Origin: Escherichia phage QL01
Length of the DNA stretch: 64,000 nucleotides
Strand: one strand, 5' to 3'
Sequence record: NC_028847.1
The translations under genes were made by a program, and so were the position numbers. Each line of letters begins with the position of its first letter. Positions within the stretch are counted from its first letter, which is position 1. The notes under the pieces are model-generated. The model saw only the letters and a list, made by a program, of their open reading frames with translations. It was not told where the DNA came from and did no database searches. This document shows, piece by piece, positions 3,229 to 39,674 of this stretch.

Positions 3229-3263
3229 TTTACTCTCCTTCACTCTGTTGTTTTGATAGGTCT

Positions 3264-3292
3264 ATAGTATCATGTTCTACGAAAGAGTAAAC
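3264..3292 (-). promoter_or_regulatory. T4-type early promoter cassette (GTTTAC -35, TACTAT -10), copy 1 of 5
   Basis: minus strand reads GTTTAC-N16-TACTAT then agacctatcaaaac leader; same cassette at 6381, 6949, 41601, 57436. Confidence 0.5.
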
Positions 3293-3311: not shown

Positions 3312-3344
3312 GAAACAAAAAAGGCCCAACCTTTCGGAAGGGCC
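3312..3344 (-). terminator. intrinsic terminator (hairpin with GAAA loop plus U-run), copy 1 of 3 identical hairpins
   Basis: ggcccaacctttcggaagggcc at 3323-3344; A-run on plus strand gives U-run on minus strand. Confidence 0.5.
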
Positions 3345-3349
3345 TAGAA

Positions 3350-3947: not shown

Positions 3948-4412
3948 TTATTTGATTTGTTTAGCAGACCAGATACGGTCTTTGATGATTTTCTGAATAT
4001 CTTCAACATACTCTAAGTCGTGAGCATGTGGATTATCTTTGAAGCTATGTGCTCGTGCCAGTTTCTGGCCTTCTGTTTTGATTACTAAAAGCTCTTTAAG
4101 AATTGCTTCATACTTAGAAATAATTCCTTTGGCGATATTTTTTTCTTGAGCGGCTTTAGGGTCCGCTTTTGACGCAGGTGCTTTACCTGTAGCTTTCTGG
4201 AACAATTCACCTGAGGCAGCTAGGCTTTTAAAAACTCGGCTAACAGTATTGGCATTAGTAAAACCTTCGGCTTTAAAATCTTTAATAAAACGGAAACGTT
4301 CTTCATCAGAGGCGTCTTTGTAAGAATATTTACCTGCTTGAATTGCTGCAATCGCAGCGGCTTTTACATCTGAACTAGATTGTTCAGTCAAAAATTCATT
4401 GTAAGTTTTCAT
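3948..4412 (-). CDS. internal protein (IP-like) with capsid-targeting N-terminus
   Basis: starts MKTYNEFLTE, matching the T4 IP capsid-targeting sequence as recalled (MKTYQEFIAE); own late promoter and terminator. Confidence 0.7.
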   Translation of the reverse strand: MKTYNEFLTEQSSSDVKAAAIAAIQAGKYSYKDASDEERFRFIKDFKAEGFTNANTVSRVFKSLAASGELFQKATGKAPASKADPKAAQEKNIAKGIISKYEAILKELLVIKTEGQKLARAHSFKDNPHAHDLEYVEDIQKIIKDRIWSAKQIK

Positions 4413-4438: not shown

Positions 4439-4446
4439 TATTTATA
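4439..4446 (-). promoter_or_regulatory. late promoter TATAAATA
   Basis: exact TATAAATA on minus strand about 27 nt upstream of ATG at 4412. Confidence 0.5.
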
Positions 4447-4476
4447 CAAAAAAAGCCCAACCTTTCGGAAGGGCCT
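4446..4476 (-). terminator. intrinsic terminator, copy 2 of the repeated hairpin
   Basis: gcccaacctttcggaagggcc at 4455-4475 with A-run 4447-4454 (U-run on minus). Confidence 0.5.
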
Positions 4477-4857: not shown

Positions 4858-4932
4858 TGGTATCCCGCCCTGGGATCGAACCAGGACCGCAAACTTAGAA
4901 GGATCGTATGCTATCCATTACACCAGCGGGAC
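4858..4932 (-). tRNA. tRNA-Arg (anticodon UCU)
   Basis: 75 nt cloverleaf folded by hand: acceptor GTCCCGC/GCGGGAT, T-arm CCTGG-TTCGATC-CCAGG, anticodon loop CTTCTAA, encoded CCA. Confidence 0.85.
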
Positions 4933-4937
4933 GTAGT

Positions 4938-5014
4938 TGGTGACCCAGACCAGATTTGAACTGGTAACCTTTCCCTTATGAGGGGACTGCTGCTAACCAT
5001 TGAGCTACAGGGCC
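4938..5014 (-). tRNA. tRNA with CAU anticodon (Ile-lysidine type or Met)
   Basis: 77 nt: acceptor GGCCCTG, T-arm ACCAG-TTCAAAT-CTGGT, anticodon loop CTCATAA, encoded CCA; 5 nt from tRNA-Arg. Confidence 0.75.
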
Positions 5015-5751: not shown

Positions 5752-6159
5752 TTAACCCTCGTCTACAATAGTATGGGTATTAGCATTAACAATCTGCCAC
5801 CAGTCACAGTCAAAACGATTAGAACCGTAACGAGGCTTTTTCTCATTTTCGTTAATAATATCACGTAGTTCGTCTTCAGAAAATGCTTTAGCGATTAAAT
5901 CGGTATAGCCGCCACGTGGATAATAGTTATCACCTGCGAACAGAAGGAAATTTACTTTACCAGAAGGAACATATGCTTCCTTAGGATACTTGTTTCCTGC
6001 TTGGTCTACCACTTCAATATAACGGTAAGGAATATCGGTACTTTCAACCCATTGCCAAGCTGCAGCAGGGGATTCAAAAGCATCTACACCTAAACGGTTA
6101 TCTTCATCTTTAGACGGATTATTTTCATAATCCGCATATACATAATATTCAATGTTCAT
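5752..6159 (-). CDS. hypothetical protein
   Basis: 135 aa ORF. Confidence 0.5.
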   Translation of the reverse strand: MNIEYYVYADYENNPSKDEDNRLGVDAFESPAAAWQWVESTDIPYRYIEVVDQAGNKYPKEAYVPSGKVNFLLFAGDNYYPRGGYTDLIAKAFSEDELRDIINENEKKPRYGSNRFDCDWWQIVNANTHTIVDEG

Positions 6160-6344
6160 TATTCACCTTTAGAGATTTTATCCATAACGAAAGAAATTGA
6201 ACCAATTAAGAATGCCACTACTAAAGAGATTATATTCTCGGAAGTTGAAAGCATATCGAGCATGAATCCTGCAAACATACTAAAGCCAAAAGCAGTAACA
6301 GCGGCCAGTGCAGTAACATTTCTAATTAATTCACAACGTTTCAT
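6159..6344 (-). CDS. small membrane protein
   Basis: ORF track start is TTG at 6356; ATG at 6344 with GGAGA RBS; hydrophobic helices; early promoter cassette upstream. Confidence 0.5.
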   Translation of the reverse strand: MKRCELIRNVTALAAVTAFGFSMFAGFMLDMLSTSENIISLVVAFLIGSISFVMDKISKGE

Positions 6345-6380
6345 TTTATTCTCCAATCACTCATTTGTTTTGATAGGGCT

Positions 6381-6410
6381 ATAGTACCATCACTAAAGCC
6401 CGTTGTAAAC
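6381..6410 (-). promoter_or_regulatory. T4-type early promoter cassette, copy 2
   Basis: GTTTAC ... TACTAT agccctatcaaaac on minus strand. Confidence 0.5.
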
Positions 6411-6412
6411 AA

Positions 6413-6685
6413 TTATTTTAAATAAATTGCATATTTTTTATAACCAGCCGTCTCGTGGCGCAGCCCTTTTTCATTAGCAAAACGTTCAATATTGTTAATT
6501 TGATTCTGGTCGAGTTCTGAAGTATCAAATACAAAAAAGTTTCGCTTATTGCCTAAAGTTACGTGATTAGTCAAATCGATGTTATAGAGATGATTTATAT
6601 TATCAATCATGGTCTTAACAGATTTGTTAATTTTTACTTCTTCATTAAGAATAGATTCAGCGATAAATTCTTGGTATGATTTCAT
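6413..6685 (-). CDS. internal protein (IP-like) with capsid-targeting N-terminus
   Basis: starts MKSYQEFIAE. Confidence 0.65.
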   Translation of the reverse strand: MKSYQEFIAESILNEEVKINKSVKTMIDNINHLYNIDLTNHVTLGNKRNFFVFDTSELDQNQINNIERFANEKGLRHETAGYKKYAIYLK

Positions 6686-6686
6686 T

Positions 6687-6911
6687 TTATTCAGCGCCAG
6701 CGGCTTTCAAAAGTTTTTTAAGATTGGCTATGCCGCCAGCAGAAAACGTGACCTTGCCACCTTTTTCATTGATAGAGCCAGTCAATTTAGCAAGCTTATC
6801 ACTAGGGACTTTTTTAAAATCAGCCAGTGTGCCATCAAAGGTTTTTGTAACAATTGGCAGTTCATCTTCATGTCTTTTAGCTTCGGTGATAAATTCTTGA
6901 TAAGTTTTCAT
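6687..6911 (-). CDS. internal protein (IP-like) with capsid-targeting N-terminus
   Basis: starts MKTYQEFITE; early promoter cassette upstream. Confidence 0.65.
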   Translation of the reverse strand: MKTYQEFITEAKRHEDELPIVTKTFDGTLADFKKVPSDKLAKLTGSINEKGGKVTFSAGGIANLKKLLKAAGAE

Positions 6912-6948
6912 TTTGATTTCCGTTTGGTTAGTTTGTTTTGATAGGTCT

Positions 6949-6977
6949 ATAGTATCATGCCTATAGACCTTGTAAAC
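6949..6977 (-). promoter_or_regulatory. T4-type early promoter cassette, copy 3
   Basis: GTTTAC-N17-TACTAT agacctatcaaaac on minus strand. Confidence 0.5.
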
Positions 6978-6988
6978 AACTTTTTAAA

Positions 6989-7681
<693 letters not shown>

Positions 7682-9115: not shown

Positions 9116-9766
9116 TTATTTTATAAATTCACGTAGTCTTACTGGTGTCATAAAAGGCCATTTGGCTATAGTTGGTTTTATCCAGTATCTTTCGTGGCAT
9201 GTAGCTTTAAATGCCCGAACCATATCCTTGGCCTCTTCTATAGTATCCACACCAAATTGTTCACAAGTTTCCTTTCTGGCTTTATCCCATCTCCGTTTAG
9301 AAAGCTCCGCTTGGAGTTCTTTATTGGCAAAACGGCCATTATTCCTATCATGAGTGGTTCCTTTTGTAGGACTCCATCCTCGTCCCTTTACAAATCCTTC
9401 AGGAATCGGTTCACCCGGAAACAGCTTAATACACTTCTTGCCATTATTATAATAAACCTTTCCTGTTTGGGTTGCTGTGATATTCTCAGAGTGCTTACGT
9501 TTAAGCCAGCCGTAAAGCTTATTAGAACGACGAGGGCCTTGAGTCATTGTCATAGCTGCAAAAGTTAGACCAGGATGTCCTGGATGCATTTTAACTAATA
9601 GTTGATGTGCTAAATAATGTTCTTCAGGAGTTAAATCAACTAAGTTTGTAGATTCATCACCTCCACCCATACATCTAGGTAAAATATGATGAGATTCGGT
9701 ATAACAGGATAGTGCTCGTCCTTGAGCACGTGTAATTAATGAAGAATATATTTTCTGGTAATTCAT
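9116..9766 (-). CDS. HNH homing endonuclease (Mob-like)
   Basis: motif ESHHILPRCMGGGDESTNLVDLTPEEHYLAH; ATG at 9766 overlaps gp2 stop; inserted between genes 2 and 3. Confidence 0.75.
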   Translation of the reverse strand: MNYQKIYSSLITRAQGRALSCYTESHHILPRCMGGGDESTNLVDLTPEEHYLAHQLLVKMHPGHPGLTFAAMTMTQGPRRSNKLYGWLKRKHSENITATQTGKVYYNNGKKCIKLFPGEPIPEGFVKGRGWSPTKGTTHDRNNGRFANKELQAELSKRRWDKARKETCEQFGVDTIEEAKDMVRAFKATCHERYWIKPTIAKWPFMTPVRLREFIK

Positions 9767-10602
9767 TATGCCTTCTTCCAAACTTTCTGAGCTGAATAAC
9801 GCTTACCTTTCGATACAAATTGCTGAAGTGGTAATCCTATTACATTAGCCCAATCAGATGGTTTTATCTCTACTAAAGGTCCCTTAATATTTCCAGGGAT
9901 ATAAGCCTTAATCATCACGTCGGCGCCAGCGAATCCTTTTACCTTACTCCAATCGATTTTTAATTTAGTCGAGTTCGTAATGGTAGGCGTACTCGCGTAT
10001 TGCTTCAGCAATTCTTCCAGAAATTGCTGACGTGCTTTAGGTGGAATATAGTGTAAGTTCAGTCCGTACATTAAATTATGCTTACCTAACCCAAGATAAA
10101 TTATTAAAGGATATTTGTCCCAGTATGGTAGGGTATCCTTATGTTTGGCATCATAGATATAAGCATAAAGCTTACCAGGAGACGGTTTAGATACCTGGTG
10201 TCCACGAATTCCTTTCTTTAATGTTTCTGTAAACCATTTAGCTGATTTATTGTTTACGGCAGCGCCTTCGTTAGCAATCTTATCGCGAATACTCTTTCTA
10301 AAACTATTCACCAAAATTAATTGACGTTCGGCTTTGGTTAATTTATTGCCAGGTTTCTTCTGAAGTTTTTCAACCTGTACAGCAGTTTTAATTCGACTCG
10401 AGTATCGAGACATCGCAGATGTAAAGCTAGAATACTTGATGCCTTTATCTTCAGCGAATTTCTTAGCCGAAACACCTTTAGCCTTAGCGTTGGCATATTC
10501 AACGCCTAAAGTTATCCATTGTTGTTCTGAACGAGTAGGCTTGGAACCTTTTGTAGTTTCAGTAGCCTCGTTGATGTAAGAAAATATACTCATCCTTTCC
10601 AT
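9766..10602 (-). CDS. 2: gp2 DNA end-protector protein
   Basis: 278 aa, synteny and size (T4 gp2 about 274 aa). Confidence 0.7.
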
Positions 10603-37765: not shown

Positions 37766-38193
37766 TGTTCCTTATCCCTGATGATTACGAATTAACTCTA
37801 GAAAGCGTAGAGGCCAAAATTCCAGAAGCACAGGGACGTTTTGCTGCTCTTTCTGAAGCGCTCGAGAAAAGCGATATAAATAATCTTGTAGAGAACATGA
37901 TTGCTGAAGGCGATATCGAATGTGCTATCGCTCTTGGTTCTTTAAATGAATCAATGGCTCTTAACGAATTTATCGTTAAACACGTTTCCTCTAAAGGTGA
38001 GCTTACTCGTACTAAAGATATTAAAACCCGTCAACGTAATGCGTTCCAAACGACAGGTTTATCTAAAGCAAAACGCCGTCAGATTGCTCGTAAAGCATCT
38101 AAAACCAAACGTGCTAATCCGTCTACTCAAGTACGTGCCGAACGTAAGCGTAAGAAAGCCCGTTCTAAACGTAAAGCTTTTGGACTTAACTAA
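37765..38193 (+). CDS. 68: gp68 prohead core protein
   Basis: 142 aa with basic C-terminus. Confidence 0.75.
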
Positions 38194-38828
38194 TGAAACC
38201 TGAATTGCTCATCGAACATTGGGGACAACCAGGTGAAATTATCGATGGGGTTCCTATGTTGGAATCTCATGATGGAAAAAATTCTGGGCTTGCTCCCGGC
38301 CTTTATATAGAAGGCATTTTCATGCAAGCAGAGGTAGTTAACCGTAATAAACGCCTTTACCCAAAACCTATTTTGGAAAAAGCCGTTGCCGATTATATGG
38401 CAGAACAGGTTGCTACTAAACAAGCTTTAGGAGAATTAAACCACCCACCTCGTGCTAACGTTGACCCTATGCAAGCTGCTATCATTATTGAAGATATGTG
38501 GTGGAAAGGTAATGATGTTTATGGACGTGCACGTATCATCGAAGGTGACCATGGCCCTGGTGATAAACTAGCTGCAAATATCCGAGCTGGCTGGGTTCCT
38601 GGTGTTAGTTCTCGCGGTCTTGGTTCTTTAACTGAAACCAATAAAGGATATAAGCGTGTAAACGAAGGTTATAAATTAACCGTCGGTGTTGATGCAGTAT
38701 GGGGACCATCTGCTCCTGATGCTTATGTAACTCCGAAGCAAATTACAGAATCACAAACGGTAGAAACCGATACCAGTGCCGATGACGCCTTTATGGCTCT
38801 CGCAGAGGCCATGAAAAAAGCGTTATAA
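38193..38828 (+). CDS. 21: gp21 prohead core protease
   Basis: 211 aa, synteny and size (T4 gp21 212 aa). Confidence 0.85.
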   Translation: MKPELLIEHWGQPGEIIDGVPMLESHDGKNSGLAPGLYIEGIFMQAEVVNRNKRLYPKPILEKAVADYMAEQVATKQALGELNHPPRANVDPMQAAIIIEDMWWKGNDVYGRARIIEGDHGPGDKLAANIRAGWVPGVSSRGLGSLTETNKGYKRVNEGYKLTVGVDAVWGPSAPDAYVTPKQITESQTVETDTSADDAFMALAEAMKKAL

Positions 38829-38858: not shown

Positions 38859-39674
38859 ATGCTTAAAGAACAACTGATCGCCGAAGCACAGAATATTGAT
38901 GCTTCCGTTGCTCTTGACAGTATTTTCGAATCAGTTAATATTTCTCCGGAAGCAAAAGAAACTTTCGGCACTGTATTCGAAGCTACCGTCAAGCAACACG
39001 CCGTGAAACTGGCTGAATCTCACATCGCTAAAATCGCTGAAAAAGCGGAAGAAGAAGTCGAGAAAAATAAAGAAGAAGCTGAAGAAAAAGCCGATAAGAA
39101 AATCCAAGAAGCTGCCGGTCGTTTCCTTGACCACGTTGCTAAAGAATGGATGGCTGAAAACCAGCTGGCTGTTGATAAAGGTATTAAAGCCGAACTGTTC
39201 GAATCCATGTTGATGGGTATGAAAGAACTGTTTGTTGAACACAATGTGGTTGTTCCAGAAGAAGCAGTAGATGTTGTTGCTGAAATGGAAGAAGAACTCC
39301 AAGAGCAGAAAGATGAAACCGCTCGTCTGTTCGAAGAAGTTGGTAAGCGCGACGCGTATATTAATTACGTACAGCGTGAAGTTGCTGTTACGGAAGCAAC
39401 TAAAGACCTGACTGAATCCCAAAAAGAAAAAGTTAGTTCTCTGGTAGAAGGCATGGATTATTCCGATGCATTCGGTAGAAAAATTGGCGCTATTGTTGAA
39501 ATGGTTAAAGGTCAGTCTGACGTTGAAAACCCAATCACCGAAGCCGCTATAAATAAAAATGTAGACGATGCTGCGGCACTGAATTACATTTCAGAAGCAG
39601 TTGAAGAAAAAGGCGCTAAGCCTACCCTGTCCTTCGCGGACCTGTCTGCAATCGCAGCATCACGAATTTCTTAA
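38859..39674 (+). CDS. 22: gp22 prohead core scaffold protein
   Basis: 271 aa, Glu/Lys/Ala-rich helical protein. Confidence 0.85.
   Translation: MLKEQLIAEAQNIDASVALDSIFESVNISPEAKETFGTVFEATVKQHAVKLAESHIAKIAEKAEEEVEKNKEEAEEKADKKIQEAAGRFLDHVAKEWMAENQLAVDKGIKAELFESMLMGMKELFVEHNVVVPEEAVDVVAEMEEELQEQKDETARLFEEVGKRDAYINYVQREVAVTEATKDLTESQKEKVSSLVEGMDYSDAFGRKIGAIVEMVKGQSDVENPITEAAINKNVDDAAALNYISEAVEEKGAKPTLSFADLSAIAASRIS

Follow-up and report, generated by a model that had tools for sequence, protein, structure and literature searches.

Two tagged genes of the Ip8 and Ip9 internal-protein families at the ipI locus of a T4-like Escherichia phage, and tag-less relatives of Ip9

Results

Two adjacent genes with a capsid-targeting sequence

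The stretch of DNA analysed here (hereafter the window) comprises 64,000 nucleotides (nt) of Escherichia phage QL01 (NC_028847.1). In it we studied two small neighbouring genes, ip8 and ip9, which lie on the minus strand between gene 57B and trna.4 and leave a 1-nt gap from the stop codon of ip8 to the start codon of ip9 (Table 1). An initial annotation, made from the letters alone, had noted that the two open reading frames (ORFs) begin with MKTYQEFITE and MKSYQEFIAE, had likened these decapeptides to the capsid-targeting sequence (CTS) of the T4 internal proteins (Ips), and had proposed that the genes encode novel injected anti-defence effectors. Both ORFs, with these starts, are present on the minus strand at the positions it gave.

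Aligned with the T4 reference genes (NC_000866), each decapeptide agrees with the N-terminus common to IPII and IPIII (MKTYQEFIAE/A, the slash marking the cleavage point) at nine of ten residues, and at 27 (ip8) or 26 (ip9) of 30 nt. The likeness to the CTS therefore stands when the real T4 sequences are used. The decapeptide that the initial annotation had given for T4, MKTYQEFIAE, is correct for IPII and IPIII but not for IPI, which begins differently, with MKTFKEFTSTTTPVSTITE/A. According to the work of Mullaney & Black 1996, as it is reported in PMC9026906, residues 1-10 of IPIII suffice for packaging, with positions 4 and 7 serving targeting and positions 8 and 10 serving cleavage. The corresponding residues Y4, F7, I8 and E10 are intact in both tags, and the site expected for the prohead protease gp21, I-x-E followed by A or S, is found in both proteins, in line with the cut after Glu named in the initial annotation. 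In all six reading frames of the window together, a loose form of the tag, MK[ST][YF].[EQ]F[ILV].E, was found three times, against about 4e-5 occurrences expected from composition and none in 200 shuffles. The tag match is far above chance level.

Beyond residue 10, the cargo parts of Ip8 and Ip9 resembled neither one another nor those of T4 IPI, IPII and IPIII (all pairwise E >= 0.06 in a six-sequence database), in agreement with what the initial annotation had stated. The predicted mature products are residues 11-74 of Ip8 (6.7 kDa, isoelectric point (pI) 9.6) and residues 11-90 of Ip9 (9.4 kDa, pI 8.0).

Table 1. Positions in the window of ip8, ip9 and the other features discussed in the text (PeSL, promoter-early stem-loop; a slash marks the predicted cut)
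Feature	Position	Strand	Description
ip8	6687-6911	minus	74-aa internal-protein precursor; start MKTYQEFITEAKRHED; phrog_8765; found in 106 phage records
ip9	6413-6685	minus	90-aa internal-protein precursor; start MKSYQEFIAESILNEE; phrog_7673; found in 198 phage records
ip8 CTS, MKTYQEFITE	6882-6911	minus	codons 1-10; predicted gp21 cut after Glu10 (FITE/A)
ip9 CTS, MKSYQEFIAE	6656-6685	minus	codons 1-10; predicted gp21 cut after Glu10 (FIAE/S)
Upstream PeSL-type cassette	6932-6991	minus	-35 TTTACA 6976-6971; -10 TACTAT 6954-6949 with TG; hairpin 6943-6970
Downstream PeSL-type cassette	6364-6424	minus	-35 6409-6404; -10 6386-6381; TTTACA/TACTAT with TG; promoter for trna.4
Third copy of the cassette	3247-3284
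orf154	3948-4412	minus	154 aa; MKTYNEFLTE/Q; phrog_2280
Late promoter of orf154	4439-4446	minus	TATAAATA, 27 nt upstream of the start codon
31-nt direct repeat	3315-3345 and 4446-4476		97% identical; terminator-like hairpins
Gene 57B	6989-7444	minus	left neighbour of the ip pair; Pfam PF23474 Acb1, E 8.9e-59; 85% identical to T4 57B
trna.4	6159-6356	minus	right neighbour of the ip pair; phrog_1692, E 3.9e-33; 67% identical to T4 trna.4
tRNA-Arg	4858-4932
tRNA-Met	4938-5014
gp21 prohead protease	38193-38828	plus	Pfam Peptidase_S77, E 6.4e-103; predicted remover of the CTS
gp22 scaffolding core protein	38859-39674	plus	Pfam T4_CASP, E 7.2e-90; predicted CTS docking partner
221-aa ORF	9116-9781	minus	between genes 3 and 2

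Ip8 and Ip9 belong to named families

Over its entire length (residues 1-90 of 90), the longer protein matches phrog_7673, annotated as 'internal head protein' (E 6.5e-56). With Ip9 of phage RB15 (UniProt Q38376; 100% coverage, E 8.5e-39) it shares 77% identity, and with the IME08 protein labelled 'Ip9 (similar to RB15 and K3 Ip9)' 99%; the ip9 label is used for homologs in IME08, VR5, VR7, VR26 and WG01. With RB15 and K3 Ip9 it has in common the length of 90 aa, the tag, the full-length identity and the place beside trna.4, and apart from a Ser instead of a Thr at residue 3 of the tag, it differs from them by ordinary allelic variation only.

The shorter protein matches phrog_8765, 'internal virion protein' (E 8.1e-27), and is 89% identical to VR5 ip8, which carries the note 'similar to Ip8 of Enterobacteria phage RB15'. 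The connection to RB15 Ip8 thus runs through the VR5 annotation and not through a direct alignment. In length (74 aa) and tag it corresponds to this family, named 'internal virion protein' in the RefSeq records of Dhakavirus and Jiaodavirus, with no substantial difference. In VR5, as in the window, ip8 stands immediately downstream of 57B and immediately upstream of ip9. From these full-length matches, we identify the 90-aa protein as Ip9 and the 74-aa protein as Ip8.

Both families are conserved along their full length, with 72-100% amino acid identity across the phage records counted in Table 1 and additional metagenome clusters, and numerous columns are invariant in each of the two alignments. 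Klebsiella phages account for 52 of the 106 Ip8 records. The genes are therefore not novel: they are named, annotated in RefSeq and PHROGs as internal head or virion proteins, and have been screened against GmrSD restriction enzymes. That polymorphic ip genes with a CTS occupy this locus was reported by Repoila et al. 1994, as that study is cited in PMC4122927, PMC9026906 and PMC12373910, and to call the two genes ip8 and ip9 is ordinary annotation with names that are three decades old. Of the proposal made by the initial annotation, the class (injected anti-defence effectors) is the standard and most reasonable view of such proteins, and the novelty does not hold.

Neither Pfam nor NCBIfam had a match for Ip8, Ip9 or a third tagged protein described below (orf154), a word-indexed homolog search returned close relatives only, and a sequence search of PDB gave no meaningful match; the best PDB match of Ip8, Csm5 (E 0.018), was treated as noise. 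The AlphaFold2 (AF2) model of Ip9 has a predicted local distance difference test (pLDDT) score of 81 and an alpha-beta-beta-alpha-beta-beta arrangement over residues 21-88, and that of Ip8 (pLDDT 76.5) is a small alpha/beta domain; a further, unlabelled column of the structure table holds 7.6 for Ip9 and 5.0 for Ip8. Foldseek comparison with BFVD yielded one significant match, an unnamed 535-aa protein with 30% identity, and the predicted folds of Ip8 and Ip9 gave no functional lead.

A promoter/stem-loop cassette at a variable locus

The gene order around the pair is that of T4 (trna.2-trna.3-trna.4-ip-57B-57A-1-3-2-4), and ip genes are found between trna.4 and 57B in T4, IME08, IME281, VR5 and WG01. 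This confirms the synteny with T4 ipI that had been recognised initially, although the tRNA 'cluster' mentioned there consists of two genes only, about 1.4 kb away.

On either side of the ip8-ip9 pair lies one copy of a direct repeat (families D2 and D7; about 60 nt, 82-84% identity), and each copy contains an early promoter with an overlapping hairpin, for example AGGTCTATAG...CTATAGACCT. In the upstream copy, TTTACA and TACTAT are separated by 16 nt, and a third copy of the cassette is present elsewhere in the window. The cassettes (TTTACA-N16/17-TACTAT) fit the consensus TTTACW-N17-TAYWAT of the promoter-early stem-loop (PeSL) elements of T4 and PST (PMC4122927). PeSLs (Arbiol et al. 2010; Comeau et al. 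2014, PMC4122927) are the same kind of direct repeats of early promoter and hairpin around variable genes; they were proposed to mediate modular shuffling and were explicitly tied to the IP locus (PMC4122927). T4 ipI, which encodes IPI (Ip1, IPI*), the inhibitor of GmrSD CT596, occupies the same trna.4/57B locus and is flanked by the same promoter/stem-loop element. For ip8-ip9, shuffling by PeSLs would follow from the sequence repeats, no recombination event or mini-circle having been seen.

Related phages differ in the content of the locus exactly at the PeSL-type elements. T4 has ipI only and Klebsiella phage Mineola ip8 only; the window and VR5 have ip8-ip9 (57B-ip8-ip9-trna.4), IME281 has a 69-aa tagged ORF followed by ip8 and ip9, and WG01 has the 69-aa tagged ORF, ip8, ip9 and ip7. 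Ip8 is 89% identical between the window and Mineola, a Jiaodavirus (locus L010, 2501-2725), whereas the neighbouring gp1, gp3, 57A and 57B are 50%, 57%, 36% and 75% identical. The contrast between Ip8 and core genes at 36-57% indicates a recent transfer of the cassette between genera, of which 57B was perhaps also part.

Two further sequences may bear traces of exchange between ip genes. In the metagenomic protein P0040 (77 aa), the middle part of Ip7 is fused to the C-terminal half of the Ip9 domain, a junction that points to recombination inside the ip locus, and the OLB35 protein labelled 'ip7' (hit H150) aligns to residues 39-90 of Ip9. Both look like recombinants.

Tag-less relatives of the Ip9 cargo domain

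Using tblastn with Ip9, we also found matches in phages that are not T4-like, with alignments starting at about residue 17-19. Phage Bas70, with a genome of 43 kb, encodes a stand-alone homolog of 72 aa (53% identity; locus L005, 3007-3225), and Seuratvirus KS_S4 one of 74 aa (46% identity; locus L007, 2992-3216). In-frame stop codons lie just upstream of both start codons, so the tag is truly absent. Of the genes behind a sigma-70-type promoter (TTGCAC-N17-TACTAT) in Bas70, the homolog comes first, and it heads a run of small genes; such stand-alone genes in siphophages are consistent with a very early role. In Kuttervirus, an Ip9-like domain forms part of a protein of 861-983 aa (32% identity; match to phrog_7673 with E 3e-8). 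The Kuttervirus protein SilasIsHot gp71 (locus L006, 307-3258) also matches phrog_3867 and has a weak VWA-like match.

The search of mature sequences that the initial annotation had suggested was carried out for Ip9 as an exhaustive HMMER comparison of the mature domain with 1.84 billion representatives, and it retrieved nine clusters only: tagged forms (MKFNEFLTEA..., MKSFKEYLTES...), untagged proteins of 66-74 aa and the large Kuttervirus type. No bacterial homolog was found among these representatives. The Ip9 cargo is therefore a small domain, restricted to phages and present both with and without the tag. This distribution fits a scenario in which T4-like phages would use the tag to bring effectors that already existed into their heads.

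A third tagged gene

The third occurrence of the tag motif in the window, orf154, is at a locus separate from the two usual ip loci and was not among the ORFs named in the initial annotation. It is preceded by a perfect late promoter and has terminator hairpins at both flanks. The family (RB32ORF132c) is represented in 510 phage records and is 'hypothetical' or unannotated in every record listed. Distant homologs retain a tag-like N-terminus, such as MKSYTQFLNEAVLNEA in RB51 and MKFKEFLAEA in a Klebsiella phage. On the strength of tag, promoter and conservation, orf154 probably encodes an internal protein that has gone unrecognised, at a third locus; with such a gene unannotated, the number of Ip genes counted so far in T4-like phages looks too low. 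A nearly identical direct repeat of 31 nt flanks orf154 together with a DUF7338 gene, and for the surroundings of the orf154 homolog in RB51, the record notes a comparable '34 bp imperfect direct repeat'.

Head-assembly genes and genome context

With Enterobacteria phage vB_EcoM_IME540 the region shares 99.9% identity, and with other Dhakavirus genomes 93-99%; by these identities, the window belongs to Dhakavirus, the JS98/IME08 group of T4-like coliphages. It encodes the prohead protease gp21 and the scaffolding core protein gp22 (Table 1) as well as gp23, gp24 and the portal protein. The I/L-x-E cleavage motif also occurs in the head proteins of the phage itself, in gp24 (MAKINELLRE/S), gp23 (SFLTE/AEIGG) and gp22 (QLIAE/A and NPITE/A).

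Gene 57B carries the label 'RNA ligase' in RefSeq and PHROGs, and its Pfam score is that of Acb1, an anti-CBASS nuclease. With this score, the ip cassette directly adjoins a known anti-defence gene. IME540, otherwise 99.9% identical, has no counterpart of the 221-aa ORF between genes 3 and 2. The ORF has no Pfam match; a motif resembling HNH (HHILPR...N...EH..AH) was recognised by eye, and the ORF may represent the insertion of a mobile endonuclease. Its identity with the annotated homing endonuclease of IME540 was rejected because the two are unrelated.

Discussion

We consider it very likely that ip8 and ip9 are known, polymorphic internal proteins of the T4 type in the Dhakavirus ipI locus, and that their products are packaged, cleaved and injected and most likely serve against host defence. 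By analogy with T4, the precursors would be made with the ten-residue CTS, which would dock them on the gp22 scaffolding core during prohead assembly; gp21 would then cut after Glu10, and the mature proteins would remain in the head beside the DNA. Injected along with the DNA, Ip8 and Ip9 would act before any phage gene is expressed, and their most likely task would be to neutralise a host defence factor. Recombination between PeSL-type elements could exchange ip genes among related phages.

The closest experimental counterparts are T4 IPII and IPIII (Ip2 and Ip3). They share with Ip8 and Ip9 the design of the tag, the gp21 motif and the small size, and Ip8 is similarly basic. Their cargo is unrelated, their locus differs (beside gene e), and they have been shown experimentally to be packaged, to be injected and to act against GmrSD. 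According to Silas et al. 2025 (PMC12373910), who put the number of known Ips at ten or more, each of the T4 proteins Ip1, Ip2 and Ip3 inhibits one distinct GmrSD type IV restriction enzyme.

Several observations weigh against this interpretation. When ip4-10 were assayed against representatives of 15 GmrSD groups, no reproducible inhibition was obtained (PMC12373910, Supplementary Fig. 9; we did not find in its supplements which alleles of ip8 and ip9 had been assayed), and an anti-restriction role is therefore unproven for Ip8 and Ip9. Neither protein has sequence or fold similarity to a proven GmrSD inhibitor of the IPI*, Ip2 or Ip3 kind. Our search of the literature on Dhakavirus virion proteomics and on Ip8/Ip9 function found nothing usable, and hence no direct evidence of the two proteins in virions, cleaved or injected. 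Mature Ip9 is weakly basic. There is also no perfect late promoter (TATAAATA) before the ip8-ip9 pair, so that late synthesis would presumably proceed from the early-type promoter or by read-through from upstream; T4 ipI likewise has an early-type promoter and no perfect late one.

The two genes could be thought of as chance reading frames, or as decaying remnants in which a leader is conserved at the DNA level, given that both are short and lack Pfam and NCBIfam matches. Full-length amino acid conservation in hundreds of phage records and in metagenome clusters, many invariant columns, confident AF2 folds of the cargo parts and a tag motif so rarely expected already refute this, and we regard its probability as negligible. 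Packaged Ip8 and Ip9 might instead have a mainly physical function in the head, assisting the condensation and ejection of DNA as basic counter-ions or spacers, and not be specific inhibitors of host defences. The pI of mature Ip8, which resembles that of T4 IPII and IPIII (9.6-9.7), would suit such a role, as would the failure of ip4-10 to yield a GmrSD target and the predicted folds that offer no functional lead. It would leave unexplained, however, why unrelated cargo is swapped as cassettes between phages and why Ip8 is nearly identical across genera whose core genes have diverged; mature Ip9 is near neutral, the tag-less Ip9 domain of siphophages cannot serve head packing, and all three T4 Ips proved to be specific inhibitors. 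We therefore consider a mainly physical role improbable.

A question of target specificity is raised by Ip9 in particular. Its cargo could be a general module of early host takeover or anti-defence whose target is not a type IV enzyme specific for sugar-modified cytosine, with the tag having turned an early-expressed effector into a pre-packaged one; the generalisation that all Ips block GmrSD variants would then fail for Ip9. In favour are the tag-less homologs of Bas70 and KS_S4 with stop codons upstream, the position of the Bas70 copy directly after its promoter, the occurrence of the same domain inside the large Kuttervirus protein, and the membership of ip9 in the ip4-10 set. Phages of the Bas70, KS_S4 and Kuttervirus types are not known to have glucosylated hydroxymethylcytosine in their DNA. 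The distribution of the domain weakly suggests that the target of Ip9 may not be specific to DNA modified in that way, which would agree with the negative GmrSD screen. On the other side, the family is small, none of its nine clusters has a member of known function, and the early timing of the siphophage genes follows from position and promoter only. A GmrSD-type target could also still apply, since enzymes of the GmrSD family, BrxU among them, tolerate many modifications (PMC13390438). On balance, we think that a target of this other kind is a serious possibility, though the evidence leaves us leaning somewhat away from it.

Returning to packaged, injected internal proteins, the two lines of evidence that go beyond ip8 and ip9 themselves can be combined in a wider picture, which we put forward tentatively and with appreciable doubt. 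In it, the Ip9 cargo would be an autonomous early effector that appears as an immediate-early gene in siphophages (Bas70-like phages and Seuratvirus), as part of a Kuttervirus protein of about 900 aa, and fused to the tag and pre-loaded in T4-like phages, its target being a host factor shared by phages of widely differing DNA chemistries and not a restriction enzyme specific for glucosylated hydroxymethylcytosine; orf154 (phrog_2280) would in addition extend the Ip repertoire beyond the two usual loci.

Conclusions

Among the effectors of a phage, internal proteins alone are in place at the moment of DNA entry into the cell, which makes them first-line counter-defences and a proven delivery vehicle for foreign proteins. 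Three points are of modest interest: relatives of the Ip9 domain that lack the tag, the mobility of Ip8 between genera and the unannotated orf154. The GmrSD screen of 2025 did not identify targets of Ip8 and Ip9, and the tag-less Ip9-domain relatives in unrelated phages suggest that the target of this protein may lie outside modification-dependent restriction.

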